Part shown: positions 24,139 to 58,009 of the stretch, in pieces
Layout: the number at the start of each line of letters is the position of its first letter
How positions within the stretch are numbered: position 1 is the first letter of the stretch
From: an uncultured Chloroflexia bacterium
Lineage (GTDB): Bacteria > Chloroflexota > Anaerolineae > CG2-30-64-16
Direction: 5' to 3'
Length of the DNA: 64,000 nt
NCBI GenBank assembly: GCA_963810095.1
Contig: CAWEMM010000006.1
Coordinates: 1,216,001-1,280,000 of the forward strand
Program-made: the position numbers and the translations under genes
The notes under the pieces: model-generated
What the model saw: the letters and a program-made list of their open reading frames with translations, nothing else
What the model was told of the DNA's origin: nothing
Databases searched by the model: none

Positions 24139-24143
24139 GCACC

Positions 24144-25118
24144 ATGCTTGACTGGACTATCATCCTCCAGGCCGGCATTGCGTCCGGCACCGTCCTCCTG
24201 TTCGCGGCCCTCGGCGAAATCCTGGCAGAGCGGTCCGGCGTGCTCAACCTGGGCCTCGAAGGCATGATGCTGTTGGGCGCCATGTTCGCGTTCAAGATGG
24301 CGGTTGCCACCGGCAATCCCTGGCTCGGGCTGCTGGTCGCCGCGATCGCAGCGGGCCTGCTGGCGCTGCTGCACGCGATCGTGACCGTCAACTTCCAGGC
24401 CGACCAGGTGGTCAGCGGTCTGGCGGTCAACTTCGTCGGCGTCGGGCTTGGCCATGGTGCTGGGCGAAGGGCTTGAGCAAGGCGGGCGCGGTCTCCGTGC
24501 TGCCCGTCATCACCCTCCCCGTCCTCTCGCAGATCCCGGTGCTCGGCCCGATCCTCTTCACCAACCACAGCCCGCTCGTCTATGTCGGGTACCTCCTGAC
24601 GCCAGCCATCGCGTTCTACGTGAACCGCACCCGGCAGGGCCTGCACCTGCGGGCGGTCGGCGAATATCCCGCCGCGGCGGATGCGCTGGGCATCAACGTT
24701 GCGCGCACTCGCTACATCTACGTCATCGTCGGCGGCATGATGGCCGGCATCGCCGGCGCAAACATCTCGCTTGGCCGTCTCCCCCGGCTGGTTCAGCGAG
24801 TTGACCACGGGCGGCCAGGGCTGGATCGCGGTCGGCCTGGTCATCTTCGCCCAGTGGAACCCGTGGCGGGCGCCGCGGGCGCGTACATGTTCGGCGCGCT
24901 GCGCCGCCTGATCCTCGACCTGCAGGCTCCGCACGATGCTGTTCGGCTTCGCCAACCCGATCTACTACATGCCGAAGCTGAGCTTCTTCCTGCAGATGCT
25001 GCCCTATGCGCTGGTGATCGTCATCCTGGTCATCGGCTCGCGGGAGGCCATGAAGAAGCGCATCGGCGCACCCGCTGCGCTCGGGTTACCGTACGTGCGT
25101 GGGGAGCGCGGGTTGTAG
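24144..25118 (+). CDS. Nucleoside ABC permease; several indels
   Basis: ERSGVLNLGLEG, LRAVGEYPAAAD, MLPY, PAALGLPY. Confidence 0.84.
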
Positions 25119-25146
25119 CGCAGGGAAACAGTCAGTTCCCATGGTC

Positions 25147-25179
25147 ACGTGCCGGGTACTTTCGAAGCGCCCGGCACGT
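25147..25179. terminator. Hairpin between convergent genes
   Basis: ACGTGCCGGGTACTT...AAGCGCCCGGCACGT. Confidence 0.55.
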
Positions 25180-25196
25180 TCGCGTTTGGTCCGCTT

Positions 25197-28100
25197 TCAG
25201 ACCCCCCGCCAGTAATCCAGCCCCGTCGGGCTGCGGCTCGCCCCCAGCTCGCGCAGCAGCGCCTCGCCCGGGCTGCCGATCACCGGCGCGTCGTTCCAGG
25301 ACTTGATTTCCGCCCGCCGCGGCGCGCCCGGCCGGTTCAGGTAGGCTTCCAGCGCTCGCTTCAGCACGTCGACACTCACCTCCGCGGTGCTCAGCCGGGT
25401 GCCGTTGTCCTCGCCCACCAGGGCCGGCGCGCCCCGGTACACGACAAGGTGCGTCGAGGCAACGCGGGCGAAACGAAACGCCGGAGACGGCGCAGCAGGG
25501 GCTCCCGGCCCTTGCCCGGCCTCTGTTCCCTCTGCGACCTCCGTGGCCAGCACCCCCAGGTCCCCGCCGTACAGGTTTGCCGGGTCGAGCGCCGACAACA
25601 GGGTGAGCTGTCGCTGGTGTCCAACCCGCTGCGGGCCCCCCGCAGCGACTCCACGGCCTGCGGCAGCGCGTACTGCACGCCCGACAACCCCTTGACGAAG
25701 TAGCCCCGCCGCACCTCGCCCCGCAGCTCCATCCGCCCCAGCTGCTCCGACAACTCGCCCCAGTTCCACGCCACCTCGCGCGGCCCGTGCAATTCGCGCA
25801 GTGCGTGCTGCGCCTGTGGCTCGTGCCGCCCCTCCCAGAGTCGCGCGCACCGGCGGCTCGGCCGCCGCCTCTTCCGCCCAGCGTCCAGCGCGACTCGAAG
25901 CGGGCGACGATCTCGGGGGTGATGAGGCCGTAGCGTTCGAGCGCGATCTGCACGAAGGCCGCAGCAGCCTCGTCGCTGCGCCGGGCCGGCCCCATGATTG
26001 CCGCCCGGTTCACCAGCGACCACCGCCCACTCCAGCCGTGCTCTGACTGGGCTTCCGCCGCCAGCGCTGCGTGACCAGGCGCTTTTGCTCGCGCATCCGC
26101 TGAGGTGAGGGCCGCGCCGCCGCCGCGCGCCGCCCCATCGGCCGCGGCGGCAGGCGCTGCGCCAGGTCCTCCTCGCAGGCTGCTTGCGGGCCTTGGACCT
26201 GGCGCCTCCTCTCGGGCGGCCAGCACCGCGGCCAGCGCGCTCAGGTCTTCCCCGGTCACCAGGCCGGCCAGCGCCAGCTGGCGCAGGGCCTCGCGCAAGC
26301 CGGCCGCGCTCAGGCCGGCGCCTCCCTGGATGTCGGCAAAGAACGACGGGCCTTCGGACTTCAGATAGGCGAAAACCTCTGCCGCCGGCCCATCGTCGAA
26401 ACCGCCGGGCACGGGTCCGCCAGGAAAAGCGCCCCTTCCCGCCGGGCGACGAAACGCAGGTTCGGGCGGCCCTTCGACCCCGCCCGCGACCCACGCCAAG
26501 TCACCCTTCCGCACCGGGTCGTCAAGGTCGCGCCACGGCTGGCTGATCCCGCGCGCCGGCAGCACCTCGCGCTCCCAGGCGGCGGCCGGCAGCGCCAGCC
26601 CGCGCATCTGGTGCAAGGTCTCGGCCGGCCCGCTGCGTCCGGATGCCGCGCCCGGCCCCACCTGCTGCCAGCCCAGCAGGAACGCCTGGTAGGCCGGCAG
26701 GGGGACCGGCTCCACCTCCCGGCGCAGCAGGTTGAGCGTGCGCCGGTAGACCTGCTCGAAGAGTTGGCGGTCGCAGTACTCGAGCTCCGGACCGCCCGGC
26801 CAGGAAGTGGCCCTGCACGATGGCGCCGCTCGGCGAGGAGTTCGCCCAGGCGTCGCGTCGAGCCAGGCCGGGTCGAAGGCATAGCGGTCGAGGATGGCGG
26901 CAGCGCGTCACCGGCCCCGCCCAGCGCAGCTAGCGGGTAAGGATGCGTGTCGCCGCGTCGTTAACCGTCGAGCGTCCTTCGTCGGGTCCACGCCCTTCGG
27001 TCATTCCGCTCGGGATGCTCGCTGGCTCACCGTCAACGCTCTCCCCGAGAAGGGCGCGGTACTCCTGTGCATACTCCGCGGGGATCCAGCGCGGCACCGG
27101 GCCGCGGGCCGTGGGAATCGGCGAGCGACCGGATCGTGCCCCGGCGCGCCAGCTCGTCGAGCCAGGGGGCGGGGTCGGCAGTGCTGCGCTCCGCAATCTC
27201 GCCGTCGCTCAGGTCGCCGAGCTCGAGCAGGAAGACGCTCAGTTCCTCAGCCGTGCGCACCTTGCGCAGCTCAGACGTGTGCGCCGCGCTGCCCACGACC
27301 GCCTCCACGGCCTCGGGCTTGAGCGGCAGTCGCCCCGATCCCGATCCTTCCAGCAGGTCGTCGACCAGCTCGCGGCGCATGGCCAGCGACTGCAGCTGCT
27401 GCTCGGCCTTCGGCGTGTCCCACTCGTACATGTAGGTGCTGATGAACTTGTAAGCAGGCCGGACGCCAGCGGCGATGGGACACGCGTGTGAACGGGCAGC
27501 ACCTTGACCCGGCCCTCTTCGATCGCGGTCAGCAGGCCGTCCAGGTGCCCCAGGTCCATCACGTCGCGCAGGCAGTCCCGATAGGTCTCGGCCATGATCG
27601 GGAAGTCGGGCACGTTGCGGACGGTGGCCAGCAGGTCGCGGGCCTTCATCCGCTGCAGCCAGAATGGGGTGCGCTTGCGGCCGCGCGACCGCGGCAGCAG
27701 CAGCGCCCGGCCCGCGTTGACGCGGAAGCGCGCGCCGAACACGGCCGAGTTGGGCAGCTCGCGCAGGATGCGCTGCCGCGCCTCGCGCACCGGCATCCCG
27801 CCGACCACGTCCGGCAGCGACGGAGAGGTCGGCGCCGGCAAACGCGGCCTCCCGTGGGACGCCGGTCGCCAGGTTGCCCTGGTCCTGCGCGCCGAGCACG
27901 ACGCCGGGCAGGCGCAGGAGGATGCCGTCGTCGCTGACCATGCTCTCGATCTCGATGCCCGTGCGCTCCTTGAGCGCGTCGACCAGCGCCAGCGCCCACG
28001 CGCCGTTGATGCGGCCCCCGAACGGCGAATGGACCACCACCCGGCGCCTCGCCGACGGCGTCGAAGAAGGTCTCGACGATGATCGTCTCGTCCGAAGAGA

Positions 28101-30408
28101 TGGCGCCCGAGCGCGTCGACCTGGCTTTTGACGTAATCGTACAGGGCGCGGGCGGAGTTGAGATCGAGCGCGTAGTCGCGCTGGAGGTCGGCGACGACGT
28201 CGTCCCGGTCTCGCCGGGACGGGCGGCAATCTGGTCGGCGACCCGGCGGCGCAGCACGCCGATGCGTTCCCCAAGCTCGTACGACCGCCAGGGATAGTCG
28301 CCCTTCCAGAAGGGCATGCGCGGCAGCTGCCCGGCCGCGTCGCCCACGATGACCCGGTCGTCCTCCAGCGCCTCGACGCGCCACACGCTCGACCCGAGCA
28401 TGAACACGTCGCCGGGCCGCGTCTCGAAGATAAACTCCTCGTCGAGCGTGCCCACCCGCGTCTTGCCGTCGGCCAGGTAGACGTCGTAAGCGCCGGTGTC
28501 GGGGATGGTGCCCGGGTTGTTGAGCGCCAGCAGCCGGGTGCCGGGCAAGGCGGCCAGCCGGTTGTTCGTGCGGTCCCAGGCGATGCGCGCTTGAAGCGAG
28601 GCGTGGCCGGGGCCGGGCACATTCTGGAAGCGGCCCGAGACCATGCCGAGAACCTGCTCCCACGCGGTGCGCGACAGGTCACGGTAGGGAGTAGGCGCGG
28701 CGGACGAGCGCAAAGAGTGCGTCCGCGTCCCACTCGTCCACCGCCACGGCCGCAATCACCTGCTGGCTGAGGACGTCGAGCGCGTTAGCGGGCGTCTGGT
28801 CTCCTCCACCGCGCCGTCCAGCATCCCACGCACGACGGCCGCCGCCTCCACCAGGTCCTCGCGGTGCGTCGCGTAGATGCGGCCCTTGCTCGTCTGCCCC
28901 ACGAGGTGGCCCGAGCGCCCGACCCGCTGCAGGCCCTGCGCCACGCTGCGCGGCGCCTGGAGCTGCACGACCAGGTCGACCGCGCCGATGTCGATGCCGA
29001 GTTCGAGCGTGCCGGTCGAGACGAGCGCGGGCAGCTTGCCCGCCTTGAGCGCCTCCTCCATCTCGCGCCGCGACTCCTTCGACATGCTGCCGTGGTGCGC
29101 CTTGATCGGGCCCTCTGCGCCGAGCGCAAAGAGGCCCTTGTCGCGCATCACGCCGCCCGGCGCCAGCACCTCGGTCGAGCCCGGCTCCACCTCCTCCGAG
29201 CGCTCGGCCGCAATCTGCGCGTTGAGCCGGTCGGCCGTGCGCTCGGCCAGCCGGCGGTTGTTGGCGAAGATCAGCGTGGTGCGGTGCCGCATGACGTCGC
29301 CCAGCACCTGGGGAATCACCGACGGCCAGATCGAATCTCCCGGCATGTCACTGAAATCCTCGACCGGCATGACGACCTTCAGGTCAAGCGCCTTCTTATA
29401 GCCCGTGTCGACGATGGTGACAGGGCGCGGCGCCATGCCGCCGCGGGGCGCACCTGCAGGGGCGGGCGTCCTTCGACTGCTTCGCTGCCGGCAGAGGGCG
29501 GGCCTCCTTCGACTGCGCTCGCGCCCGCAGGTGCGGCGCTCGTTGCAGCGGCGCTGTTTGCAGCGGCGCTGTTTGCAGCGGTGCTCGCTCCGCTCAGGAT
29601 GCCCTGCGTATGCGGCTCTTCGGCAGCAGTCGAAGCATCCTGAGCGGAGGGGCTGCCCGCAGGCAGCACCGCAGTCGAAGGATGCGCCCCGGTTGCCTCT
29701 TCCTCCTGCCCGCCCAGGAAGCGCGCCGCCTCTTCCAGCGGCCGGACCGTCGCGGACAGCCCGATGCGCTGGATGCGATGTCCCGCGAAGTGCTCCAGGC
29801 GCTCCAGGCTGAGCGCCAGGTGGACCCCGCGTTTCTCGCCCACGAGCGTGTGGATTTCGTCGACGATGACCGACCGGACGGTCTTGCAGCATGTCGCGGG
29901 CGCGCGGGCTGGTCAGGATCAGATACAGGGACTCGGGGGTCGTGATCAGGATGTGGGGGGGCAGGCGAACCATGGACTGGCGGGCGCCGGCCGGCGTGTC
30001 GCCCGTGCGCACCGCGACCCTCAGCGGCGGCAAGGGGTCCTTGCCCTCCTTGCCATAGCCCAGCCGCTCGGCTTCGGCGCGGATGCCGGCCAGCGGCGCG
30101 CGCAGGTTGCGCTCGATGTCGTTGTTCAGTGCCTTCAGTGGCGAGATGTAGAGCAAGCGCACGCCCTGGTTGCGGGCGCCGTCCTCGGCCGCCAACTCCC
30201 GGTAGATCTCGTCGATCCCCCACAAGAATGCGGTGAGCGTCTTGCCGGAGCCCGTCGGCGCCAGGATGAGCGTGTTATCGCCCCGGGCGATCGCGGGCCA
30301 GCCCTGCGCCTGCGGCGGGGTCGGCCGGCCCAGCGCGCGCTCGAACCAGGCACGCACGGGCGGCGAAAAGAAGGCCAGCGACGAGTCACCGTTCGCGGCA
30401 TTGCTCAT
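25197..30408 (-). CDS. lhr: Lhr-family large DEAD/DEAH helicase; many indels and repeat-derived inserts
   Basis: [87 protein letters not shown]. Confidence 0.87.
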
Positions 30409-30499
30409 GGGCACACACTCACTATCTCAGGGGTCAACAGCGTCCCCATCGTAGCACATGGGTGCTAAGTGGTCAAGCATTTTCTTCGCAGTTAGCCCC

Positions 30500-37415: not shown

Positions 37416-38589
37416 ATGCACGGAGCCTTTGTCATCCCGCCCGACACGCAGCAAGAACTCGTCGAGTTTGCCCGGCAGTTGGTGCGCATCAAAAGCCTCT
37501 CGGGCCAGGAGGGGGAAGTCCTGCGCTTCGTCGAGCAGCGGATGCTGGCGCTCGGCTATGACCGGGTGGTCTACGACGGGATGGGCAACCTGCTGGGCCG
37601 GGTGGGCGACGGACCGCGATCGATCATGTTCGACTCGCACGTCGATACGGTCGACGTGACGGACGCGGAGCAGTGGGAGCTCGAGCCGTTCAGCGGCGCC
37701 GTCGTGGACGGGCTGCTGTACGGCCGCGGCTCCGTCGATATGAAAGCATCGGTTGCCGCCAGTGTCTATGCGGGCGCGCTCGCCAAGGCCGCGGGGCTGA
37801 CGGAGGGCAAGAGCGTCTACGTCTCGTGCAGCGTCTTCGAAGAGGACTGCGACGGCGAGAACCTCAAGCACCTCTTCCACGAGCTTCAGCTCAGGCCGGA
37901 CTGCGTCATCATCTGCGAGCCGTCCTCCAACAAGATCGCGCTCGGTCACAAGGGCAAGGCGCAGATTGCCATCAAGACGCACGGCGTTTCCGCACACGGC
38001 TCGGCGCCCGAGAAGGGCGTCAACGCCATCTACGAGATGGCCGAGATCATCCAGCGGGTGGAACGGACCAACCTGGAGCTGATGAAGATGCCCGGGCCGC
38101 GCCGCACGCTGGTCATGTCGCGCATCACGAGCGTCGCAGCCTCGCTCAACGCCGTGCCCTCCGAGTGCGAGGTGTACCTGGACCGCCGCACCGTGCCCGG
38201 CGAAACGGCAGAGGACATCCGGCGGGAGATCGAAAGCCTCATCGAGGGCAAGAACGCGACCTGGGAGATCGGCGCGCTGGACCGCACCAGTTGGACCGGC
38301 ATGCCCATCCGGTACGAGCCGTTCCACCCGGCCTGGCAGATCAGCCTGGACCACGAGCTGACGCAGCGGTGCATCGCCGCCTATCGCGCCCAATTCGGCG
38401 TCGAACCGGTCGACTTCGACTTCTGGGATTTCAGCACGAATGCGGTGACCCCGGTCAGCCTGGGCATCCCGACGATCGGGTTTGGCCCCGGCGACCACAA
38501 GCTGGCGCACATGCGGAACGAAAACTGCCCGGTCACGCAGATCGTCGACGCGTGCGGCTTCTACGCGCAGCCTCATCGACCACATCTAG
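37416..38589 (+). CDS. ygeY: YgeY-family M20 hydrolase, copy 1; indel near C-terminus
   Basis: FDSHVDTV, GRGSVDMK, EEDCDG, GHKGK, AHGSAPEKG, WDFSTN, GFGPG. Confidence 0.82.
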
Positions 38590-38849
38590 CCGGGCTAAAA
38601 CTGAACTGCATGATGCGGATGGCACCTTTCAGCGTTCGAGGCCAACACCTGTATACGAGCCGCCGGTGCGACGATCAAAGTAGCACCGGCAGCCCCCAAG
38701 AGTACGCAGGTGCATGAAATTATGCCAATTAGGGATTCAATGGAAAGTGTCGGGACCCCCGTAGGGGTGGCATACATATCATAAATATATACACATCCGG
38801 TCGTATCGGCCGCGCAACACCGGGGGGATATGTATACTTTTATGATATG

Positions 38850-40582
38850 GATGCTGTTGGCGAAATGGTTCATGCCGGTGCCAGTGCTGCGAAATGAGAC
38901 ATCCTGGTTGTGGATCGAGGGACGCCGGTCAGCCAGGCGATGACACGTCTCACATTGATGGCAGCGGCCGTGATCAGGTGTTGGAAATGCGTTTTGGCTA
39001 ATCCGCGATAGCGGCTGCGGCGCATATCGAGCTTATCGGTGGCTTGGCCGATGGTTCCTTCGATGCCAGATCGGATGGTATACGCTTCCTTGAATTCGGC
39101 AGTTGCCTGGCGCTGGCGTGCCGCTTGAAGAGCGAGTTGTTGCTCTTTGGGCTGCAAAGTCAAGCCGCGGGGCGTGGACGCACTTTTCGTGCAGCGCGCC
39201 CGGCTTGCGCAGGCCAGACAGTCTTTTTCGCCAAAGTGTACCTGGAGGGTGGGCTTGCCCCGTGGTCCTTTGGCGGGCCACCAGCAGCGGCTGGTTTTGC
39301 CCATCGGACAGATTACGACATGGCGTTCCCAATCAATTTTGAATTGGGTAATATCAAACGCCTGCGGGTCTTGGCGCTGCCAACTCACGTCAGGACGGAC
39401 AGGCCCGAGCAAATCAACGCCGTACTTGTCCTGGCTGCTCACTAACAGTTCGGCGGAGGGATATCCAGCGTCAACGAGGTGTTGGCTGGGCAGAAGTTCC
39501 TTTGTTTCCAGAGCCGCATGAACCCGTTCCACGACCATGTTGTCCTGCTCTGTGGCAGGGGTCGTCTCAACATGCGTGATCAAGTTGGGACGATCCGGCT
39601 CACAGGTCTCAGTCAGATGGACCTTGTAACCGTGCCAGAAGGTCTCGCGCTTGACTGAAGAGCACGCTTCTTCGTCGTAAGGCGAGACGATTGCTTGGCA
39701 GCTGGGTGGGGAGTTCTTCTCGTCTCGCCAGGAAAGGCGGTCGTCTTCCAGGTAATAGTTCTGTATCCACACCCGGCGTAGGGTTTCCACGGCCGGGACA
39801 CGGCGCAGATGATTTGGCGCAGATGCTGCCCACACCTGGCGCAGAAGCTGGGAGCCATCACGGCCGATTTGTTCGGCCAATGCCAGTTGTTCGGCGTCGC
39901 TTCTGGGCAAGCGAAAGCCGGTCGGGCGCTGGCTGTAGCGCTCGAACCAGTCAGGTTGGATGCATGTACGCAGCCAGTCGGGAGCCAACTGCGCTAATAC
40001 ATCCAAAGCGTGGTAGAGCGTTTCGCTGACCAATTCAACCCGGTTCAGCTTGCGCACCGCTGCCACGATATGCGTCGAGTCGGTTCGCTGGCGGGTGCGC
40101 GCTTTGAGCCAGCCACGTTCCTTAAACAGCTTGAGCAGCGCTTCAAATAGCAGGTTCTCTGCCTGACAGCTGATCAAGCGACAGCGGAACTCGCACAATA
40201 CGGAGTAGTGGAAGCCAGCATCGGTGAGTTCGAGACCCAAGGCGTACTTCCAGTCAATGCGACTGCGCACAGCATCCGCAGCTTGCCGATCCGTGAGATT
40301 CTCGGCAAACTGCATGATGGTGACCAATGCCAAGCGCCATGGCGTCTCGCAAGGCTGACCCCGCCGAGGGTAGAAAGCAGCAAATTGCTCGTCGCGAAAC
40401 ACGGTGCCCAACTCGTCACGGAACCGCATGCACCAATTGTCGTCTGGAAACACGGCACGCGCTACTTGCGCCGTTTGCTCTGGAATGGCAAAGTCGTCGC
40501 TCGGCTGGAGACACATCTTTCACCTCCTGCTCGGAGGTTCAATTATACATCGGCACGGCGACTCGAATTCGCCAACAGCATC
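38850..40582 (-). mobile_element. IS1182-family insertion sequence
   Basis: 15-bp TIRs GATGCTGTTGGCGAA (38850) and TTCGCCAACAGCATC (ends 40582); direct repeat ATATG at 38845-38849 and 40583-40587; lower GC than the flanking genes. Confidence 0.92.
38870..40516 (-). CDS. tnp: IS1182-family DDE transposase, intact
   Basis: LTDRQAADAVRSRIDWKYALGL, QRTDSTH, GYKVHLTETC, LVDAGY, RSGIEGT, RYRGLAK. Confidence 0.93.
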   Translation of the reverse strand: MCLQPSDDFAIPEQTAQVARAVFPDDNWCMRFRDELGTVFRDEQFAAFYPRRGQPCETPWRLALVTIMQFAENLTDRQAADAVRSRIDWKYALGLELTDAGFHYSVLCEFRCRLISCQAENLLFEALLKLFKERGWLKARTRQRTDSTHIVAAVRKLNRVELVSETLYHALDVLAQLAPDWLRTCIQPDWFERYSQRPTGFRLPRSDAEQLALAEQIGRDGSQLLRQVWAASAPNHLRRVPAVETLRRVWIQNYYLEDDRLSWRDEKNSPPSCQAIVSPYDEEACSSVKRETFWHGYKVHLTETCEPDRPNLITHVETTPATEQDNMVVERVHAALETKELLPSQHLVDAGYPSAELLVSSQDKYGVDLLGPVRPDVSWQRQDPQAFDITQFKIDWERHVVICPMGKTSRCWWPAKGPRGKPTLQVHFGEKDCLACASRARCTKSASTPRGLTLQPKEQQLALQAARQRQATAEFKEAYTIRSGIEGTIGQATDKLDMRRSRYRGLAKTHFQHLITAAAINVRRVIAWLTGVPRSTTRMSHFAALAPA

Positions 40583-40729
40583 ATATGTATGCCACTCCTG
40601 CTGGCTGAGCCGGTTGTGCAGAGGCATTGTAAAGTGGCAAAAGTCGTGTCGTATCTGAACATGGCCGGTCGCTGACCGTGCCCCGTTTGGCCCGGACGCC
40701 AGCGCATTTCCGGATCGATTGTTAGTAGC

Positions 40730-40852
40730 TTGGAACGCGAAGCCGCGAAGGTGGACGAAGATCGTGAAACGCGAAGTGCGCGAAGCATGCGCGGCACGGC
40801 GGCGGCCTTCGCGCTTCGCGTCTTCGCCACGCTTCGCGGCTTCGTGTTCCAA
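40730..40852. repeat. Long imperfect palindrome with periodic CGCGAAG arms
   Basis: TTGGAACGCGAAGCCGCGAAG...CTTCGCGGCTTCGTGTTCCAA. Confidence 0.8.
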
Positions 40853-40989
40853 ACGCTCGGCGTTCGCGAGATCTTGCACCGTGCCCCGCTCTCAATTCAG
40901 CCTTGACCCAGCGCGCCTCTAAACCAGTCGCAAAATGAGCCTGCCTACACTGCGAGTCCTTGCCACCTTGCGATGAGTTCAGGCATCTG

Positions 40990-41224
40990 TCCGGCTTGTG
41001 GCAGGGCGACATCGCTTTTGCCACTTTTCGATGCTCTATCATTCGCGCCGTATCGCCCAGAGGTGGCATAATAATCATAAAAGTATAAACATCCCAAAGA
41101 ACACAGATCCCCCCGGCGGTGCCCGGCCGGCACGGTGAGATGTTTATATCTTTATGATTATTATGCCACATCCACGGGGGGTCTCGCAAATGCCAATACA
41201 TCCAAAACTGGCAGCTTCTCATGC
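40990..41224 (-). repeat. Right, inverted copy of the ~230-bp hairpin element
   Basis: Hairpin GTGGCATAATAATCATAAA...TTTATGATTATTATGCCAC at 41063-41169; flanks match the left copy. Confidence 0.75.
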
Positions 41225-41536
41225 GCCTAAATGAATCGCACGCTGAAACTGCGACCTGGCGGCCTGCGAGGTCTCCGAGGCCCCGCAGGTCGGGCCGCAA
41301 GTTCATGCGGCCTTTAGTTTAGTCGTAAAATGACCGGGTTGAACTCCGGCGGCCTGCATCGGCCCTGAGCGCAAACCGTGGGGGCGAGGCACCAGAGGGC
41401 GCCTCGCCCTTACATGACCGGGTTTCGTTAGGTGTTCCTAGTCGCCCTAAACGACACATGGCGGACGTTTCGAGGCTGTTCCGAACACCTCTCACGCCCG
41501 CCATGCGACCACAACCTGTTATGGTACCGGCTACCG

Positions 41537-42556
41537 CTATCCTTCGATCTGCTTCACTGCCTCGGCCGGCGACATGTCCGCATAGACCACGGCCATCAGC
41601 CCCGCCATATACTTGTCCATCATCAAGACGTTCGTGTAAATCAGCGGCCGCAGCAAGCTCGTCGTGATTTCCGTATCGGTTACGTCCACGCTGGTCTTGT
41701 AGCGGACCTCGCCGTCGTTGAAGTCGAGTTCGAAATTACCAAGCGCCATGCCGTAGTTCGCCCGGGTGATGAACTCGGCGATGGCAGTCATCTTGTCGGC
41801 CGGCACGTTCAGCGGCAGCACCGAGTAAAACAGGATCTGCTCCACATCGCGCGTGGTCCGGATTTGAGCGTAACAATTCCAACGGCCGCCCTTGCCCTGG
41901 AACGGCAGGCGCACGATGGGCCGCTCGGGCATTTGCTCGAAGCTCCAGCCGTCTTCGGTGAAGAAAGCAGCCACGGCCTCCAGCGCCCGCAAAGGCGAGC
42001 GCGTCTCACCCGACGTGGTTGCCGGCCCCAGCGACAGCTGCGGATTGGTCGGCGTCAGGCGCCCGCCGGCCTCGTCATCGTCCCCCTCGTCGGCCTCATC
42101 TTCATCCATCGCCACCGGCGCGACCGCGGCGACCAGCCGCGCGCCCAGCTCCGCCATGTTATCGTGCAGATACGCAAACACGAGGCGCACTTCCTCAAAA
42201 CGCTCGTCGGCGCCGTTCGCTTCCCAGTGGCAAATCGAGCGGGTTTCGCCCCCGGCGTTCGTAATGCTGAGACGCGTGCAAATCTCGTCCGCACCCGGCT
42301 CACGCTCGCCGTCTCCGAGTGCAAGCACGTCGTTCTTCAGCATGGCTTCGAAAATGCCCGGCACCCGCTCGTCGTCGAGCTGCAGCCGGTAGGTCTCCGC
42401 CGAGCGATCCAGATCGACTATCTTAACAAAAGCTGTCCCGTCGCCGTAGACCGTGATGGACTGGCCGCCCCACACATCGTGGATGTCGTCCAGTTCCACC
42501 TTGGCCGTTCGCCACGTGTCCCGGCTGCCCAGGAAACTTTCGGTTATTGGTTCCAT
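41537..42556 (-). CDS. YbjN-domain protein with uncharacterised N-terminal domain
   Basis: C-terminal EFITRANYGMALGNFELDFNDGEVRYKTS; acidic linker. Confidence 0.78.
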   Translation of the reverse strand: MEPITESFLGSRDTWRTAKVELDDIHDVWGGQSITVYGDGTAFVKIVDLDRSAETYRLQLDDERVPGIFEAMLKNDVLALGDGEREPGADEICTRLSITNAGGETRSICHWEANGADERFEEVRLVFAYLHDNMAELGARLVAAVAPVAMDEDEADEGDDDEAGGRLTPTNPQLSLGPATTSGETRSPLRALEAVAAFFTEDGWSFEQMPERPIVRLPFQGKGGRWNCYAQIRTTRDVEQILFYSVLPLNVPADKMTAIAEFITRANYGMALGNFELDFNDGEVRYKTSVDVTDTEITTSLLRPLIYTNVLMMDKYMAGLMAVVYADMSPAEAVKQIEG

Positions 42557-42713
42557 CTGTCTGCCTCCCACACTCACTTCACGCCGTTCCTTGTGCTACT
42601 TTACCTAACCACACATTAGACTCCGCTCAAGGTATGCCCGGTTCCAATAACAGGTTGCCATAAGGTACTGATAAGGAACCCTGAGAGCAACCTTAAGAAG
42701 CGCGAATTGGTTC

Positions 42714-46966: not shown

Positions 46967-47037
46967 ACCACAAAGACACGAAGACACAAGGTGTCACAAT
47001 GACTTTGAGAAGCGTTGTGTCTTGGTGTCTTTGTGGT
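46967..47037. repeat. Intergenic palindrome with 9-bp-periodic arms
   Basis: ACCACAAAGACACGAAGACACAA...TTGTGTCTTGGTGTCTTTGTGGT. Confidence 0.8.
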
Positions 47038-48636: not shown

Positions 48637-49571
48637 ATGGACTTGACGAAGATCAGCATGGGCGGACAGGCGGCGACCGTTGCCATCCCCCGATGACCGC
48701 TTCGAATACACCCGGGCCGAGAGCATCGCCCACGCCGTGGCGTTGCTCAACGAGCCGGGCGTGCGCGGCCGGGTGCTGGCCGGCGGCACGGATCTCGTGC
48801 TGCTGATGCGCGAGGAACACGACCTGTGCGACCGGGTAGTGGACATGACGCTGATCCCGGAGATGCACGAAATCCGGCGCGAAGGTGACGTAGTCACCAT
48901 CGGCGCGGCCGCGTCGTTCAGCGAGATCATCGACTCGCCCGTGGTGCGCGAGACCGCGCCGCTGCTGGTCGAAGCGTGCCATGCGGTCGGCGCGCCGCAG
49001 ATCCGCAACATGGGCACGCTGGGCGGGAACGTCGCGAATGCCGCCGCGTGCGCCGACTCGCTGCCCGCGCTCGTCTGCCTCGACGCGGTCGCGCACGCCC
49101 TCACGCCCGCCGGCGCCGCTCGAGTGGCCGGTGGCCGACCTCGTGATCCGGCCGAACCAGACCAAGCTGCCGCCGGGCGCGCTGCTGACGGCGCTGAGCT
49201 ACCGCGTGCCTGCGGCGGGCAGCCGGAGCGTCTTTCTCAAGCTGGGCCGGCGCAATGCGATGGCGATCTCCCGCCTGACCGTGGCCGCGCTCGGCCGGGT
49301 GGACGCAGCGGGCAAGGTCGCCGAAGTCCGGCTCGTGCCCGGCTCGGCCACGCCGCAGATCCGGCGCTTTCCCGCAGGCGGAAGCGCACCTGCTCGGGCA
49401 GACCCCCAGCGTCGACGCTGTGCGAGGAGGCGGCGCGGGTGGCGGTGGAGGAGATGCCGGAGATCACCGGCAAGCGCTGGTCGAGCGAATTCAAGGAGCC
49501 CGCGCTGCTCTCCATGGTGGCGCGTGCGCTGCTGCAGGTGTTCGACCTGTCAGGCAAGGGAGGGCGCATGA
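48637..49571 (+). CDS. xdhB: Xanthine dehydrogenase-family FAD subunit; indels
   Basis: LAGGTDL, QIRNMGTLGGNVANA, FLKLGRRNAMAIS. Confidence 0.85.
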
Positions 49572-50081
49572 GGATCGAGTTTACCTTGAACGGGCAGCCC
49601 GTCAGCGTCGAGGCGCCCGCCGCACATCAGCCTGCTGCACCTGCTGCGCGACTATGCTGGGCCTCACCGGCACCAAAGAAGGTTGCGGCGTGGGCGAGTG
49701 CGGCGCGTGCAGCGTGCTGCTGGACGGCAAGCTGGTCAATTCCTGCCTCGTGCTGGCGCCGCAGGCCGGCGGGCGAAACGTCGTGACGATCGAAGGCGTC
49801 CGCGGCGCGGACGGCGGGCCGAACGATCTGCAGCAGAACTTCATCGACCACGGCGCGGTGCAATGCGGCTACTGCATCCCGGGCATGGTGCTGGCGGGCG
49901 AGGCGCTGCTGGCGCAGACCCTGACGCCCAGCCGCGCCGAATCCGCGAGGCGATCGCCGGCAACCTGTGCCGCTGCACGGGCTACCAGCAGATCGTCGAC
50001 GCCATCGAGGCGACGGCCGCCGAGACGGCGAGCGGCAGAACGGGCCGCCGAGCTGACCGCGCGGAGGTGACCCATGGCTGA
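49568..50081 (+). CDS. xdhC: Xanthine dehydrogenase-family 2Fe-2S subunit; indels
   Basis: GTKEGCGVGECGAC, QCGYCIPG, GNLCRCTGY. Confidence 0.87.
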
Positions 50082-52443
50082 ACTGCAAGTACATCGGCAA
50101 GCCCGCGCAGCGGGTCGACGCGCTGGACAAGGTGCTGGGCACGGCCAAGTACGCGGGCGACTATCGGATGCCGGGCATGCTCGTACGCGCGCTGCCTGCG
50201 CAGCGATCTCCCGCACGCGCGCATCGTCCGGCTCGACGTGACCCCGGCGCTGCAGGTGCCCGGCGTCTGCGCCGCGATCACCGGCGAGGACTTCGTCGAG
50301 CACGGCAACTTCGGCTATCCCGGTCGAGGATATGTACATGCTGGCGCACGACCGCGTGCGCTACGTCGGCGACGCGATTGCGGCCGTCGCAGCCGAGAAC
50401 GAAGAGGCGCTCGCCGCCGGGCTGGCCGCGATCATTTGCGAGCTGGAGCCGCTGCCGGGCGTTTTCGACCCCGAAGAGGCGCTCCGGCCCGACGCGCCGC
50501 TGGTCGGCGAGCAGCCCTGGGATTCGCCCGACCGAGCCGCGCGGCAACCTGCTGGTCAAGCACATCGTGCGCAAGGGCGAGCCGGAGCCGATCCTGCGAG
50601 CAGTCCGAGGTCGTGCTGGACGAGCATTACAGCACGGCGCACCAGGAGCACGCCTACATCGAGACCGAAGCTGCGCTGGCCGTGCCCTGGCCCGACGGCA
50701 CCGGCGTCACGGTCTACTCGCCGAGCCAGAGCCCGTTCAACGACCGCAACAACCTGTGCCGGGTGCTGGGGCTCGGCGTGGAAAACGTGCGCGTGATCCA
50801 GCCGCCGGTCGGCGGCGCGTTCGGCGGCAAGGACGACCAGATCTACCAGACGACGGGCCAGGTCGCGAAGCTGGCGCTGCTCACGGGCCGGCCCGGTGCA
50901 GATGAGCTTCCGCCGCGAAGAGTCGATGATCTTCTCGTACAAGCGCAACCCGATGCGGGTGCACATCCGGCTGGGCGCCGACCGCACCGGCCGGCTGCGG
51001 GCGAGCAAGGTCGATCTCGTGGTGGACAGCGGCGCGTACTCCGCCATCACGCCGTTCGTCGCCTGGCGCGGCAACATCCACGCCATGGGCGCCTATCGCT
51101 ACGACGCGTGCCACGTCGACACCCACGTCGCCTACACGAACAACGGGTATACGGGCGCGTTCCGCGGGTTCGGCAACACCGAAACCACGGCCTGCATCGA
51201 GCAAGCCATGGACGAGCTGGCCGACCGCCTGGGCATCGATCCCATCGACCTGCGCCTGACGAACTGCCTGCGCCCCGGCGACGAGACGGCGCACGGCCAG
51301 CGCCTGGGCGACGACGTGGGCCTGGTCGAGTGCCTGGAGCACGTGCGCCGCGTCTCCGATTGGGACCGCAAGCGCAGGGAATACGGGGAGCAAAAGGGCG
51401 GCGGTTCTGCGCGCACTCACAACCCGGCGCGGGATCGGCGTGGCCTGCTTCTTCCACGGCCTGTCGCTCGGCGCGGAAGGCGACGACTTTGCCGTCAGCA
51501 CGATCCAGGTGAACGACGACAACTCGCTTACCTTCACGTCGGGCCTGACCGACTACGGCACCGGCTCGCGCACGGTCTACACCTTGATCGCAGCGGAAGT
51601 GCTGGGCCTCAAGCCGGAACGCTTCCACATGCACCGCCCCGACACGGACACTGCGATCGCCAGCGGTCCCACCGTCGCCTCGCGCGCCACGGTGCTGGGC
51701 GGCAACGCGGTGCGCGTCACGGCCGAACGCCTCAACAGCGTGCTCGGTGAACGCGGCGGCTAACCTCTTCAAGTGCAGCACCGCCCAGGTGCTGCGCGAC
51801 GGCGAGCAGTTCATCGGCCCCCAGGAGGAGCCGGTCTCCTTCGAGGACGTCGTCAAGCACGCCCGCAGCATGGGGCTGGCGCTCTCGGCGCACGGCCGCT
51901 GGGACGCGCCCACCATCCACTGGTCGCTCGAGGACGGCACGGGCAAGCCCTACTTCGCCTATCACTACGGCGCGCAGGTCGCCGAAGTGAGCGTGGACAT
52001 GGGCACGGGCAAGGTGAGCGTTGCAGGCATCTGGGCCAGCCACAACACCGGCACGGTGATCTTCCCGCAGGGGATCCTCGGCCAGCTCTACGGCGGCATC
52101 ACGCAAGGGATCGGCTACGCGCTCATGGAGCGGGTGGACTTCGACAAGGGCTACATCCAGGCGACCAACTTCGACGAGTACCTGATCCCGACCGCGCTCG
52201 ACGTCCCGGACATCGAGGGGCACTTCGTCCAGAAGCCGTTCAGTCCGGGCCCGTTCGGCGCCAAGAACATCGGCGAGCCGGCGCATGGTGCCCACGGCGC
52301 CGGCCATCCTGAACGCCGTCTTCCAGGCGACTGGCAAGCGGGTGCGCGACCTGCCGGCAAACCTGGAGCGCGTGCTGCTGGGTCACGACCTGCGGCAGCG
52401 GGGCTCGGATCGGGCCTGCAAGCTGGGGCTCAAGGCGGGCTGA
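50074..52443 (+). CDS. xdhA: Xanthine dehydrogenase-family molybdopterin subunit; indels
   Basis: KVLGTAKYAGD, QEHAYIE, GGAFGGK, AFRGFG, TVASR, GGITQGIG, GAKNIGE. Confidence 0.87.
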
Positions 52444-52493
52444 ACCGAGACCCGGAGGGCTTCGAATGCCTCCGGGGTCTGCACCTGCGGAAT

Positions 52494-52543
52494 TTGGCAC
52501 GCAGCGAGGATCGTGTATAATACGGGTTGTCAGACATCTGACA
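52494..52543 (+). promoter_or_regulatory. Promoter and GntR-type operator
   Basis: TTGGCA-16 bp-TATAAT (52516); TGTCAGACATCTGACA at 52528-52543. Confidence 0.72.
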
Positions 52544-52577
52544 TCTCTGTATCTTTCTTCACGGTTCTTGATTTGCC

Positions 52578-53348
52578 ATGACCAACGCACCTGGTGTCCG
52601 CCTTCGTGCAGACAACCGGCCCCTCTACATGCAGGCCTCCGACGCGCTGCGCAGCCTGCTGCAGGGCGGCGAGTACGCCATCGGGGCCCGCTTGCCTTCC
52701 GAGCCGGAGCTCGCACAGCGGCTGGGCATCTCTCGGCCGACGCTGCGCGAGGCGCTGCAGACGCTCGAGGAAGAGGGTGCAATCGTTCGCCGGCACGGCG
52801 TGGGCACGTTCGTTGCCGAACCGCGGCCCGTGCTCGACGCCGGGCTCGAGGTGCTCGAAAGCATCGAGCAGATGGCCCGCCGGGGCGGCCTGCACGTCGA
52901 CATGGGCGAGGTCGTCATTGCCGAACGGGTCACGACGGATGAAGAGACCGACGGGCTGGGCCTGGCCGCGCCCGAACCGGCCATTGCCGTCGTCCGGGTC
53001 ATCCTGGCCGAGGGCCAGCGCGGGCTGCAGCCCGTGGCCCACCTGACCGACGTGCTGCCGCAGCGCTTCCTGCGCCGGGCCGATCTCGGCCCTGGCTTTC
53101 ACGGCTCGGTGCTCGACACGCTGCTGGCCCGCGGCTGGCCCAGCCTCTCGCACTCGCGTACCGAGCTTCTCTCGGAAGCGGCCGGCCCCGAGCTGGCCCA
53201 CGCCCTGCATGTCGCGCCGGGTGCGCCGCTGATGAAGCTCGACGCCCAGCTTTTCACAGCAGACGGGCAGATTGCCGATTACTCCATCAGCTATTTCGTG
53301 CCCGGTTCGTTTCGATTTCACGTCGTGCGACGCGTCGCAGGCGCCTAA
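52578..53348 (+). CDS. GntR/HutC (UTRA) regulator
   Basis: LPSEPELAQRLGISRPTLREAL...RHGVGTFV. Confidence 0.9.
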   Translation: MTNAPGVRLRADNRPLYMQASDALRSLLQGGEYAIGARLPSEPELAQRLGISRPTLREALQTLEEEGAIVRRHGVGTFVAEPRPVLDAGLEVLESIEQMARRGGLHVDMGEVVIAERVTTDEETDGLGLAAPEPAIAVVRVILAEGQRGLQPVAHLTDVLPQRFLRRADLGPGFHGSVLDTLLARGWPSLSHSRTELLSEAAGPELAHALHVAPGAPLMKLDAQLFTADGQIADYSISYFVPGSFRFHVVRRVAGA

Positions 53349-53477
53349 CCGGGTGCCCCGCCGAGCGGGCACCCCGCCAAGCGGGCGCACGACGCCGAGC
53401 GAGAACAGCCGCAGCTTCAGTGGTGGGCGCGTCCGCAGCGCTTCGCCCGCCCGATTACAGTGAGGAGAGCCAGAACC

Positions 53478-54708
53478 ATGAGTTCTACCCAACAGCTAGC
53501 CGAAGTCCGCACCCGCGTTAACCAGAGCCGCGACGAAATCCTGCAGTTCCTCCGCGATATCTGCGCCATCCCGTCCATGAATTCCGAGATCGGCCCGGTC
53601 GGCGAGCGCATCCAGCAAGAAATGCGCAAGCTGAACTGGGACGAAGTGCGCTTCGACAAAATGGGCAACACGATCGGCCGCATCGGCGACGGGCCAAAGG
53701 TCATCGTTTACGACTCGCACATCGACACCGTCGGCATCGGCGACCCGAACGAGTGGCCCTGGGACCCCTTTGTGGGCAAGATCGAAGACGGCCGCCTGTG
53801 GGCGCGCGGCGCAGTGGATGAGAAGGGCAGCACGCCCGGCATGGTGCACGGCCTCGCCATCGCCCGCGACCTCGGCCTCCTCGACGGCTACACGGTCTAT
53901 TATTTTGGCAACATGGAAGAATGGTGCGACGGCATCGCGCCCAACACCTTCGCCGAGGTCGATCCGAAGGTGAAGCCCGATTACGTGGTGATCGGCGAGC
54001 CGACCAAGATGAACGTCTATCGCGGCCACAAGGGGCGCATCGAGCTGAAGATCACGGCGTCGGGCCGCTCGGCCCACGCGGCTTCGCACTACCTGGGCGA
54101 CAACGCGGTGTACAAGATGATGGCCGTCATCACCCAAATCCGCGAGCTCGACCGCCGCATGCGGTTCGGCATGGGCTATCACCCCCTGCAGGGTTATCCT
54201 TCCATTGCCGTCACTAACGTGGAAGCCCGCACGGCTTCGCTCAACGCGGTGCCCGATCAGTTCACCATCTACATCGACCGCCGCATCACGAGCAATGAGC
54301 CGCATGACAACGTCATCGAGGTCGTCAAGGGCCTGATCCCCGACTACCTCCAGGACGAGATCCACGTCGAAGAGCTTTTCTATGACACCCCGTCGTACAC
54401 CGGGTTTGTCTTCCCCGTGTCGAAGTACTATCCGGCATGGGTGCTCGAAGACACGCACCCCCTCGTGCACGCGGGGCAGTTGGCCGGGCAGCAGGTTTGG
54501 GGCGCTACGCCCACGCTGGGCAGCTGGGACTTCTCGACGAACGGCACCTATTGGGCAGGCAAGGCCGGCATCCCCTCCATCGGCATGGGGCCCGGCGACG
54601 AAAAGACCGCCCACATGATGAACGAGAACGTGCCGCTGGACGAGGTCGTGGCCTGCGCCGAGTTCTACGCGGCGCTCCCCCAGGCCATCCGGGAGTGCAG
54701 CTGCATAA
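53478..54708 (+). CDS. ygeY: YgeY-family M20 hydrolase, copy 2; terminal indel fuses it to the next ORF in the track
   Basis: YDSHIDTV, RGAVDEKG, MEEWCDG, RGHKGR, WDFSTNG, GMGPG. Confidence 0.83.
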
Positions 54709-54723
54709 GCAGGCTGTTACGTT

Positions 54724-54801
54724 CACAGAAAGGACACGAAGACCAAAGTGCGACTAAGCCCTGCTACCTTGCGCAGCTTTGGTTTTTTGGTCCTTTGTGG
54801 T
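54724..54801. repeat. Intergenic palindrome with ~9-bp-periodic arms (degenerate)
   Basis: CACAGAAAGGACACGAAGACCAAAG...CTTTGGTTTTTTGGTCCTTTGTGGT. Confidence 0.65.
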
Positions 54802-54848
54802 TGAGGTCGAACATCACGGTACCCACACCATTCAGGAGGCATGCATCA

Positions 54849-55829: not shown

Positions 55830-55834
55830 ACGAT

Positions 55835-55896
55835 AACACGAAGACACAAAGGCACTACGACCTTTTAGAACCCTGGTGTCTTTGTGCCTTTGTGTT
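55835..55896. repeat. Intergenic palindrome with 9-bp-periodic arms
   Basis: AACACGAAGACACAAAGGCAC...GTGTCTTTGTGCCTTTGTGTT. Confidence 0.78.
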
Positions 55897-55943
55897 GAAC
55901 GCTATATCCCTTGCAAGACAGACCCATTCAGGAGAAGTATCTG

Positions 55944-56933: not shown

Positions 56934-56943
56934 GAGGTAACAC

Positions 56944-57912: not shown

Positions 57913-57922
57913 GAACGAGGCC

Positions 57923-58009
57923 GCCACGAATTACACGAATTCGACGAATTGGACGAGGCGCTCACAAGCCATTATTCGTGAAATTCGCACAATTCGTGTA
58001 ATTCGTGGC
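57923..58009. repeat. Intergenic palindrome with 9-bp-periodic arms (CACGAATT type)
   Basis: GCCACGAATTACACGAATT...AATTCGTGTAATTCGTGGC. Confidence 0.82.

Follow-up and report, generated by a model that had tools for sequence, protein, structure and literature searches.

Two convergent genes in an ordinary catabolic cluster of the chromosome, an M20 peptidase gene (+ strand) and a YbjN-like gene (- strand), are separated by a spacer in which two diverged inverted copies of a hairpin-forming, non-coding repeat of ~220 bases face each other, and the question raised by this locus is what kind of element they represent. The first-pass annotation of the window, meaning the whole 64-kb stretch of DNA analysed, described copies of ~230 bp and offered as candidates a structured RNA or single-stranded DNA (ssDNA) element, the ends of a non-autonomous transposon, or the recombination sites of an invertible segment. 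The answer favoured here, tentatively and with somewhat less than even probability, is an undescribed foldback repeat of MITE/REP-like kind, whose two copies lie tail to tail and whose pairing is maintained at the level of single strands.

Anatomy of the inverted pair

The two copies, referred to as units A and B (Table 1), measure 211 nt (unit A without the insertion sequence, IS, that splits it) and 227 nt (unit B), so that the inverted arrangement first described stands while its ~230 bp is slightly too long. Both units share a layout in which a flank with a TGCCA box is followed by GTGGCATA, a 19-bp helix, a 2x2 internal loop, a helix of 11-12 bp, a loop, and then the mirror image. Their orientation relative to the incoming gene is identical, this being the M20 peptidase gene (+) for one and the YbjN-like gene (-) for the other.

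Table 1. Positions of the two units, their parts and the inserted sequences in the window
Feature	Position	Strand	Remarks
Unit A, left part	38707..38849	+	outer flank 38707-38766, 5' arm 38767-38798, GC-rich loop 38799-38825
Unit A, 3' arm, first 24 nt	38826-38849	+	ends at IS
IS1182-family IS	38850..40582	-	1733 bp, splits unit A
Unit A, right part	40588..40655	+	last 8 nt of 3' arm 40588-40595, then inner flank
Box AAAGTGGCAAAAG in unit A inner flank	40631-40643	+	exact
Centre between units	40656..41002		347 bp, without supported gene
Nested GC-rich hairpin doublet, other repeat family	40675..40888		11-bp direct repeat at both sides
Unit B, intact, inverted relative to unit A	41003..41229	-	inner flank with box at 41015-41027
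Unit B stem arms	41063-41094 and 41138-41169	-	loop 41095-41137, outer flank 41170-41229

Aligned with the reverse complement of unit B, the IS-free unit A is identical in 143 of 214 ungapped columns (67%). The local alignment score of 160 compares with a mean of 24.1 for shuffled sequences (sd 4.1, maximum 40.5) and with 73.5 for the two units in direct orientation; the homology is specific to the inverted orientation and far above chance. The loop, outer flank and inner box are all part of it, as originally described, and it ends at 38707/41229 on the outside, where the boundary is sharp, and at 40655/41003 on the inside. Longer units were considered and rejected because the flanking sequences score at or below the shuffle mean past both boundaries (26.0 versus 26.1 outside; 14.5 versus 17.6 inside, where the halves of the centre are compared). 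A 13-nt inverted match at 38627/41236 is at chance level, since the outer flanks score like shuffles. An identity of 67% is a better fit for old members of a family than for a recent local copy.

Several motifs recur throughout the pair. The four arms align over ~100 nt with gaps only within the first 13 columns, and all of them carry TGCCA and GTGGCATA...ATCATAAA..TATA in identical columns and the GTGGCAWA/TGGCA boxes at equal positions. In unit B, GTGGCATAATAATCATAAA occupies 41063-41081, and the minus strand has it again at 41151-41169, in agreement with the reading of an inverted second copy. The pattern GTGGCATANNNATCATAAA has three matches with up to three mismatches in the 64-kb window, all inside the two units, where 0.08 are expected; none of 100 shuffles reaches three. 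The inner box AAAGTGGCAAAAG, likewise seen at first reading, is exact on opposite strands of the two units, and its sole other match in the window has two mismatches. The recurrence of TGGCA also holds up, with 10 occurrences in the ~475 nt of the units and their edges (21 per kb versus 1.7 per kb elsewhere), and 6 of the 10 occurrences of GTGGCAWA in the window fall within the same sequence.

The spacer took up two other insertions, as junk-tolerant spacers do, and both appear to be later gains: an IS1182-family IS interrupts the 3' arm of unit A, and the centre has acquired a GC-rich hairpin doublet. The IS has perfect 15-bp terminal inverted repeats and a 5-bp duplication, ATATG, at both sides (38845-38849 and 40583-40587). 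Its transposase ORF (40516..38870, minus strand, 548 aa) matches the Pfam families DDE_Tnp_1_6, DUF772 and DDE_Tnp_1 and has a closest database relative that is 92% identical; the closest plasmid relatives of the IS are 52.6% identical and annotated as IS1182 family. Deletion of the IS with one ATATG leaves a 3' arm that is fully complementary to the 5' arm GTGGCATACATATCATAAA (38767-38785), which bears out the proposal that removing the IS restores the hairpin.

The segment bracketed by the units had been described as ~320 bp with no convincing ORF. It is 347 bp long and holds the GC-rich doublet; the absence of a supported gene stands. A Pfam scan of the ORFs at 40520-40879 (-) and 40722-41306 (-) gave no match, and the latter ORF, 194 aa over unit B, had 0 matches at E <=0.001 among 1.84 billion representative proteins, so neither search found a gene or transposase remnant in the centre. 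No promoter-gene arrangement was found there. The arms of the nested doublet, at 40730-40761 and 40821-40852, are GC-rich and 84% complementary, and the direct repeat ACCGTGCCCCG flanks the doublet at 40675-40685 and 40878-40888. This doublet belongs to a second family of long intergenic hairpins in the window, and the source genome does, therefore, carry such repeats.

Two possible products of the units themselves were considered and set aside. A small ORF could begin at an ATG (38830) after the G run of the loop, with an IS-free frame of 36 codons and a homologous frame that is open in unit B too. Identical residues occur only at the stem and box, which are conserved as DNA (in the stretch between these two, 2 of 12 residues are identical by eye), and the corresponding position of unit B lacks a start codon. 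An outward small RNA from unit B as far as a terminator-like hairpin (41292-41313) has no counterpart at the unit A side.

Stem pairing and folding

In the 32-bp AT-rich stem of each unit, a conserved 2x2 internal loop separates a perfect 19-bp helix from a second one. The stem arms have a GC content of 25-31%, versus 65.8% across the window (for unit A, 0.31 in the arm and 0.74 in the loop versus 0.658), and are closed by a GC-rich loop of conserved sequence of 27-43 nt. This loop is conserved above the level of the flanks, at ~20 of 27 positions as counted from the unit alignment. The inverted repeat of unit B spans 37 nt and is 89% complementary.

Between the units, four stem pairs have diverged, each of them with both partners changed. 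Three of them make up the CAT/ATA difference, which the first-pass annotation had already found to be mirrored in both arms, and to these is added a mirrored change from C-G to A-T in the inner helix. The arms differ at six positions in the 5' arms and five in the 3' arms, with the four mirrored pairs among them; the probability of this is 5e-6 with independent sites and ~0.02 with the CAT/ATA triple taken as one event. Two unpaired columns are identical in both units. Arms agree at 29 of 32 positions within a unit and orthologous arms at 26 and 27 of 32 between units, and in the flanks the order is opposite, with agreement at 23 and 29 of 57 positions within a unit and at 35 and 33 of 57 between units. 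Expressed as conservation between the units, the stems reach 81-84% and the flanks 58-61%. Complementarity of the outer to the inner flank is significant in unit B, where 2 of 1000 shuffles reach the score, and unit B is thus a foldback over its entire length that folds as a single rod; the same comparison in unit A is not significant (145 of 1000 shuffles).

All eight folds computed for the two units, on both strands and with RNA and DNA parameters, are stabler than shuffled sequences (z -4.1 to -7.2; -4.4 to -6.8 for DNA parameters). Sense strands fold to -82.2 and -100.9 kcal/mol, versus -70.8 and -88.3 kcal/mol for the respective antisense strands. In the consensus fold the sense strand forms 55 pairs and the antisense strand 44, with 11 G-U cells of the sense strand becoming mismatches on the opposite one. 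Six of the 55 pairs are changed on both sides and none is broken, an absence that is partly built in because the consensus structure was predicted from these same two sequences.

The GC-rich centre would be expected to resist cruciform extrusion from duplex DNA, and the hairpin may therefore matter in single-stranded DNA or transcript, such as the template of the lagging strand or RNA that reads through from the two convergent genes. Either selection or template switching at quasipalindromes could have maintained the pairing, and for the mirrored changes two sequences are unable to separate selection from this palindrome-correcting process.

Relatives, partners and known systems

A lack of further copies had been named at the outset as a refuting outcome, and no such copy was found in the remaining 63 kb of the window or in the collections searched. 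The two-arm pattern returned two loci from 185,579 species-representative genomes, neither with complementary arms, where ~2 were expected by our own estimate. The intact unit B was not returned, so the source genome is absent from this set, and since the collections include neither that genome nor close relatives of it, the lack of further copies does not decide the matter. Plasmid sequences gave no blastn match to the units and neither did phage sequences, the sole phage match being 29 nt outside the units (E = 0.06). A carbamoyltransferase compared with plasmids by tblastn reached 48.4% identity at most. At least one of the stem 10-mers appears in the text of 229 papers, and the 15 matches listed were all primers or unrelated sequences.

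The suggested comparison with Rfam yielded no family at the gathering threshold. A scan of the whole window gave 0 matches, and over 40560-41450 eight matches at E up to 5 were all far under gathering scores: five microRNA-precursor models on the hairpins, one further microRNA, one frameshift element and one lncRNA segment. Neither a promoter nor a terminator is conserved from one unit to the other: promoter-like hexamers in the arms of unit B are missing at the homologous places of unit A, and no U-tract lies downstream of the hairpins. No target-site duplication was found at either unit or at the pair, the only matches being of 4-5 nt, up to 12 nt from the boundaries and none at a boundary. 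Among 179 ORF translations of the window, no transposase, integrase, recombinase or HUH enzyme was found besides the IS1182 transposase, and the window has no Rep, relaxase, Y1 transposase or RAYT-like gene. Indels of 1-2 nt are suspected in the sequence, as many of the genes look frameshifted.

Several known classes share features with the units. Like bacterial MITEs and foldback elements, as generally described, the units are of suitable size, non-coding, intergenic and AT-rich relative to the host; terminal inverted repeats are present in both, and in unit B the arms pair over the whole length. They differ from MITEs in having no target-site duplication. Two copies are known, with no other in the 64-kb window, and the one IS whose ends were compared, the resident IS1182-family element, has ends unlike those of the units on inspection. 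ERIC/IRU and Correia-type elements are imperfect palindromes of ~100-150 nt in transcribed intergenic regions and are thought to form RNA hairpins that act on neighbouring mRNAs; compared by description rather than by sequence, the units are longer and come from a GC-rich organism. REP sequences are short palindromes that have an associated RAYT gene and, on the 5' side, a conserved GTAG, whereas here GTAG adjoins the stem at one of four arms and a RAYT-like gene is missing from the window. REPINs are outlined as REP doublets mobilised by RAYT transposases, and the units resemble REPs and REPINs, so outlined, in being non-coding, extragenic and hairpin-forming and in occurring as inverted doublets with a spacer and no transposase of their own (PMC3116915, PMC3337134). 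Unlike in REPINs, each member of the present doublet is itself a hairpin of ~220 nt, its AT-rich stem being 32 bp and its loop 27-43 nt long, and two copies are known rather than a high copy number.

Other candidates were rejected. Integron attC sites have GTTRRRY-type core sites at the stem base, a length of 57-141 nt and an integrase nearby, whereas the stem base here is GTGGCATA and the window has no integrase. Plasmid hairpins of the Frpo/ssi type form -35/-10 hexamers in their stem and lie in a plasmid leading region; the promoter-like hexamers here are in the arms of unit B only, and the context is a chromosomal catabolic one. Tn3-family ends have a terminal repeat of ~38 bp with a G run starting at the outer tip, and the G/C runs at 38754-38758 and 41175-41180 adjoin the stems and point outwards, so an element with ends at 38707/41229 cannot have them as its outer tips, which speaks against Tn3-family ends and against a Tn3-derived miniature element. 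For dif/Xer sites, DnaA boxes, Fur boxes, sigma-54 promoters and Tn3-type ends, spacing or orientation does not fit the consensus sites on comparison by eye.

Competing explanations and the inserted IS

On the favoured reading, the units would be diverged members of one family, comparable in general type to bacterial MITEs and to intergenic elements of REP/ERIC type, and we infer a mobile origin, family status and action at the single-strand level; two adjacent members are not yet a family. Another reading, rather unlikely in our judgement, is that the 3' regions of both convergent genes contain a structured RNA acting in cis as a stabiliser, processing site or insulator, in which case the inverted pair would offer identical sense sequence to transcripts from either side. 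The shared orientation relative to the gene reading in, the stabler sense strands, the 55 versus 44 pairs with their 11 sense G-U cells, the six two-sided changes with no broken pair and the conserved internal loop are all consistent with such an RNA. Palindromes, however, fold on both strands by construction, the zero of broken pairs owes part of its force to prediction on the same two sequences, no Rfam family reaches its gathering score, the hairpins lack a U-tract, promoter-like hexamers occur in unit B only, and the IS splits unit A, so that at least this copy is dispensable now. The mirrored changes, internal loop and z values thus fit the structured RNA or ssDNA candidate of the first-pass annotation, while Rfam and the unconserved promoter and terminator signals do not. 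An unlikely alternative would make the pair a functionless local inverted duplication, with stems that stay paired only through intramolecular template-switch correction during replication. No more than two copies are known, side by side, the CAT/ATA triple could equal one template-switch event, and template switching at imperfect inverted repeats is described as a well-established cause, in E. coli, of clustered changes that perfect palindromes (PMC7202029). The units resemble the quasipalindrome hotspots of that account, where several bases change together and the arms stay complementary (PMC7202029). Template switching is, however, a mutational mechanism and not an element, and while it accounts for the mirrored changes, it leaves the conserved mismatch, loop and boxes unexplained: the 2x2 mismatch beside the 19-bp helix is kept in both units despite 33% divergence, where unchecked correction should erase it, the asymmetric loop is better kept than the flanks (~20 of 27 positions), and so are the stems.

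It is quite unlikely that the pair is a single non-autonomous transposon of ~590 bp (without the later insertions) with terminal inverted repeats of 211-227 bp carrying several GTGGCAWA/TGGCA sites for a transposase encoded elsewhere. The concentration of GTGGCAWA in the units, the boxes at fixed positions in all four arms and the sharp end of homology at 38707 and 41229 agree with this part of the earlier proposal; the missing target duplication around the pair, the absence of a further copy or cognate transposase in the window, of a gene or transposase remnant inside and of any plasmid or phage match do not, and protein binding to duplex DNA needs no mirrored stem changes. It is very unlikely that the units are folded ssDNA sites, either HUH-type recognition hairpins or hairpins with which an integrated element primes replication or starts transcription. 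Such sites are usually imperfect hairpins in which a mismatch and an asymmetric loop are conserved, a build that the units match, and the DNA-parameter folds are in line with it. Recognition hairpins of HUH enzymes are short, however, and the unit stems are longer; the promoter-like hexamers are not common to both units, and the chromosomal catabolic cluster lacks Rep, relaxase, Y1 transposase and integrase. The last of the original candidates, recombination sites of an invertible segment, has become highly improbable. Inverted repeats do enclose a short non-coding stretch here, but invertible promoter segments have near-identical short inverted repeats and a site-specific recombinase, and usual inversion sites are about ten times shorter than these units, which are only 67% identical over >200 nt; the 64 kb hold no recombinase besides the IS transposase, and the centre contains a nested repeat, with no promoter-gene arrangement.

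A bolder possibility, which must be considered quite unlikely, is a new class of single-strand-active element with a dedicated protein, or a new cis-regulatory RNA module serving both convergent genes. The fixed hairpin architecture (19-bp helix, 2x2 mismatch, second helix, asymmetric GC-rich loop) together with the GTGGCAWA boxes would then be read by a recogniser such as a transposase or nuclease that binds hairpins and has its gene elsewhere in this poorly sampled lineage, or, for the RNA module, the inverted pairing would let it work for either convergent gene. If the units are instead a repeat family of a little-sampled GC-rich lineage, as the favoured foldback-repeat reading holds, they would add one more type of bacterial intergenic palindromic element and provide a clean case for asking whether selection or template switching maintains stem pairing. 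The features most worth testing are the conserved mismatch and the conserved loop. As it stands, the locus is a well-built but isolated pair that would hold little surprise for a specialist.

The position of the IS within the stem of unit A invites a comparison with IS1272, a member of the same IS1182 family, which is outlined as targeting stem-loops, replacing the stem-loop and leaving no duplication (PMC5678879). The resident IS is likewise inside a stem, but it differs from IS1272, so outlined, in keeping the stem and making a 5-bp duplication (PMC5678879). Two plasmid relatives of the resident IS have 6-7-bp duplications of short AT-rich targets, read by eye from their flanks, and no clear palindrome was seen by eye at these targets; the ends of a third plasmid relative could not be reliably located. 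A hairpin preference of the IS, as proof that the stem forms in vivo, was accordingly left neutral, and the insertion into the stem of unit A may reflect a preference for AT-rich DNA.

Homology and stem structure of the two units

Two inverted, non-coding, hairpin-forming AT-rich repeats, units A and B, had been proposed in the first-pass annotation, and the observation of an inverted pair proved to be real by alignment score as well as by stem-pattern and inner-box counts. Once the insertion sequence (IS) and one ATATG are removed, unit A is identical to the reverse complement of unit B at 143 of 214 ungapped columns, and their local alignment scores 160 (shuffles: mean 24.1, sd 4.1, maximum 40.5). 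The score of 73.5 in direct orientation is an echo of the palindromy within each unit. Because flanking scores lie at or below shuffle means both outward (26.0 vs. 26.1) and inward (14.5 vs. 17.6), homology is seen to stop at the unit borders. The stem pattern occurs three times in 64 kb, against 0.08 expected, with all three matches inside the units, and the inner box previously reported as common to both is an exact 13-nt motif in each. The units also hold six of the window's 10 GTGGCAWA boxes.

Positions of the units and of neighboring features in the window
Feature	Position	Strand	Length	Remarks
Unit A	starts 38707, resumes 40588, ends 40655		211 nt without the IS	
Unit B	41003-41229		227 nt	intact; inverted relative to unit A
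IS1182-family IS	38850-40582		1733 bp	apparently intact; perfect 15-bp terminal inverted repeats
M20-family peptidase gene	ORF running to 38717	+		ORF, domain search
YbjN-domain gene	41537-42577	-		ORF, domain search
GC-rich hairpin doublet nested in the centre (40656-41002) between the units	arms 40730-40761 and 40821-40852			84% complementary; CGAAG-type short repeats
Direct repeat flanking the nested hairpin	40675-40685 and 40878-40888		11 bp	
Single arm like those of the nested hairpin	14560-14612			
Related long hairpins	46967-47037; 57923-58009; 59805-59853			

In each unit, a loop of 72-74% GC, 27 nt long in unit A and 43 nt in unit B, separates two 32-nt arms whose GC content is 25-31%. 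Both stems follow one plan, in which 19 bp of perfect helix are followed by two unpaired columns per side, at the same position in either unit, and then by another helix of 11-12 pairs that includes one further non-Watson-Crick column. The four arms and their flanks align over ~100 nt with gaps confined to the first 13 columns, and a TGCCA box lies ~44 nt outside the stem-starting GTGGCATA in all four. Outer and inner flanks are complementary in unit B (score reached by 2 of 1000 shuffles) and not significantly so in unit A (145 of 1000). For two units, two strands and both RNA and DNA parameters, eight folds were computed, and each exceeds dinucleotide shuffles in stability (z -4.1 to -7.2).

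Mirrored stem changes and the search for relatives

The 5' arms of the two units differ at six positions and the 3' arms at five. That mirrored differences preserve pairing, as the first-pass annotation had it, is borne out at four positions changed on both sides, namely the CAT/ATA triple and one C-G to A-T pair. At least four mirrored changes have P = 5e-6 if sites are assumed independent, and P is ~0.02 when the triple is counted as one event. Arms agree better within a unit (29/32) than between orthologous arms (26/32 and 27/32), while flanks show the reverse order. In the 55-pair consensus fold, 41 pairs are unchanged, eight changed on one side, six changed on both and none broken, although the absence of broken pairs is partly built in, the fold having been derived from these two sequences themselves. 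With two sequences only, two readings of this covariation remain: selection for pairing, or palindrome-correcting template switching, which is presented in PMC7202029 as a recognized way in which imperfect inverted repeats mutate. The same 2x2 mismatch, kept in both units despite 33% overall divergence, speaks against unchecked correction, though from two sequences this is no proof.

No relative of the pair was recovered. Rfam gave no match in the whole window at gathering thresholds; relaxing E to 5 for unit B and the centre yielded eight matches, all far under gathering scores and five of them to microRNA-precursor models, i.e., generic hairpins. Neither unit B nor the centre matched any of 72,556 plasmids (blastn), and 40583-41300 matched none of 50,697 phage records inside the units, the sole hit being 29 nt outside them (E = 0.06; two accession numbers of one phage genome). 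Within the window, a two-unit profile and a four-arm profile match nothing but the units themselves. A two-arm pattern of 22 specified bases found two loci in 185,579 representative genomes, with ~2 expected by chance (authors' estimate); both were rejected as relatives, their variable arm positions not being complementary and their sequence being coding-like. The scan missed the window's own intact unit B, which places the source genome outside the collection, and it thus covers other genomes and says nothing on further copies in the source genome. Further copies were absent from the window, plasmids, phages and representative genomes. For a 194-aa ORF that crosses unit B by happenstance, a search of 1.84 billion representative proteins gave no relative.

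Candidate explanations

The reading with most support, still tentative, takes the units as old, tail-to-tail members of a so far undescribed family of foldback repeats of the MITE, REP or ERIC kind. By architecture, foldback MITEs and ERIC/Correia-type RNA-active palindromes are among their nearest known counterparts. So are REPINs, characterized in PMC3116915 and PMC3337134 as inverted REP doublets with a spacer. Inverted termini of the MITE type are present, but a mobile origin has against it that there is no target duplication at the unit ends, no second site, and no partner enzyme in a scan of 179 ORF translations from the window. Tests for membership in Rfam, REP/RAYT, attC, single-strand promoters, Tn3-type ends and invertons were negative. 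An invertible segment, also suggested from the inverted arrangement, is rejected on account of repeats that are 67% identical and of the lack of a recombinase in the window.

A GC-rich palindrome centre hinders cruciform extrusion from duplex DNA. Since the centre here is a GC-rich loop of 27-43 nt, extrusion should be hard, and the hairpin would instead form in single strands, either RNA or replication intermediates. Relative to the gene that reads into each unit, the sense strand has a more stable fold than the antisense strand and also supports more consensus pairs (55 vs. 44), and 11 sense G-U cells would be mismatches on the other strand; this advantage points weakly to RNA. A dedicated RNA gene, however, finds no promoter or terminator conserved between the units, and the promoter-like hexamers in the unit B arms have no unit A counterpart. 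A protein-recognized single-strand element of a new type is improbable, although the mismatch and the asymmetric loop, both conserved, leave room for it together with the GTGGCAWA boxes.

Insertion sequence, second hairpin family and gene context

The IS transposase (548 aa; Pfam DDE_Tnp_1_6, DUF772 and DDE_Tnp_1) is 92% identical to its best database relative, and its best plasmid relatives, at most 52.6% identical, are annotated as IS1182 family. Some members of this family target stem-loops, and IS1272 replaces them without duplication, according to PMC5678879; unlike IS1272 as described there, the IS in unit A keeps the stem and is flanked on both sides by a 5-bp duplication, ATATG. Two plasmid relatives with delimitable ends (L003 and L004) have 6-7-bp duplications of short AT-rich targets, with flanks read by eye; for a third, L005, the termini could not be located with confidence. 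The insertion may therefore stem from a preference for AT-rich targets within a GC-rich genome, and it is not counted as evidence for hairpin formation in vivo.

The second hairpin family has arms of 22-34 nt made of short CGAAG, ACGAAGAC and ACGAATT-type repeats. Its members look REP-like, and the hairpins starting at 46967 and 57923 directly follow stop codons between same-direction genes. The nested and related hairpins indicate that REP-like intergenic hairpins of one family or more are present in the genome. The spacer between the convergent genes that enclose the units has acquired one such hairpin and the IS. The interval that separates unit B from the end of the YbjN-like gene contains two GC-rich stem-loops, 41292-41313 (+) and 41382-41409, the former resembling a terminator on the + strand.

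The M20 peptidase gene probably ends before 38717, as its best full-length PDB relative stops ~7 residues past query residue 382; judging from the sequence, shifting the frame by one base near 38570 would place a stop at 38587-38589. Many genes are split over overlapping frames (38560-38720, 9098-10733, 19965-21378, 23418-25303, 25135-30426), including this peptidase end, ABC ATPases, a Bmp-type binding protein, permeases and an Lhr-type helicase, reflecting either assembly indel errors or widespread pseudogenes. Small indels in the window may thus be errors, which could touch the 1-2-nt gaps of the unit alignment and not the stem substitutions.

Otherwise the window, at 65.8% GC, is ordinary chromosomal DNA with catabolic and transport genes. 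An ORF at 61399-61833 (-) carries a TumE toxin domain (Pfam PF20126, E = 8.5e-11) and is probably a member of a toxin-antitoxin pair. B12-binding and URO-D-like methyltransferase genes open the window (1-9140). A cluster at 48647-59266 comprises xanthine-dehydrogenase-type subunits, two carbamoyltransferases, a second M20 peptidase, a carbamate-kinase-like gene and PLP enzymes, a content that suggests a locus for purine or nitrogen-heterocycle breakdown.
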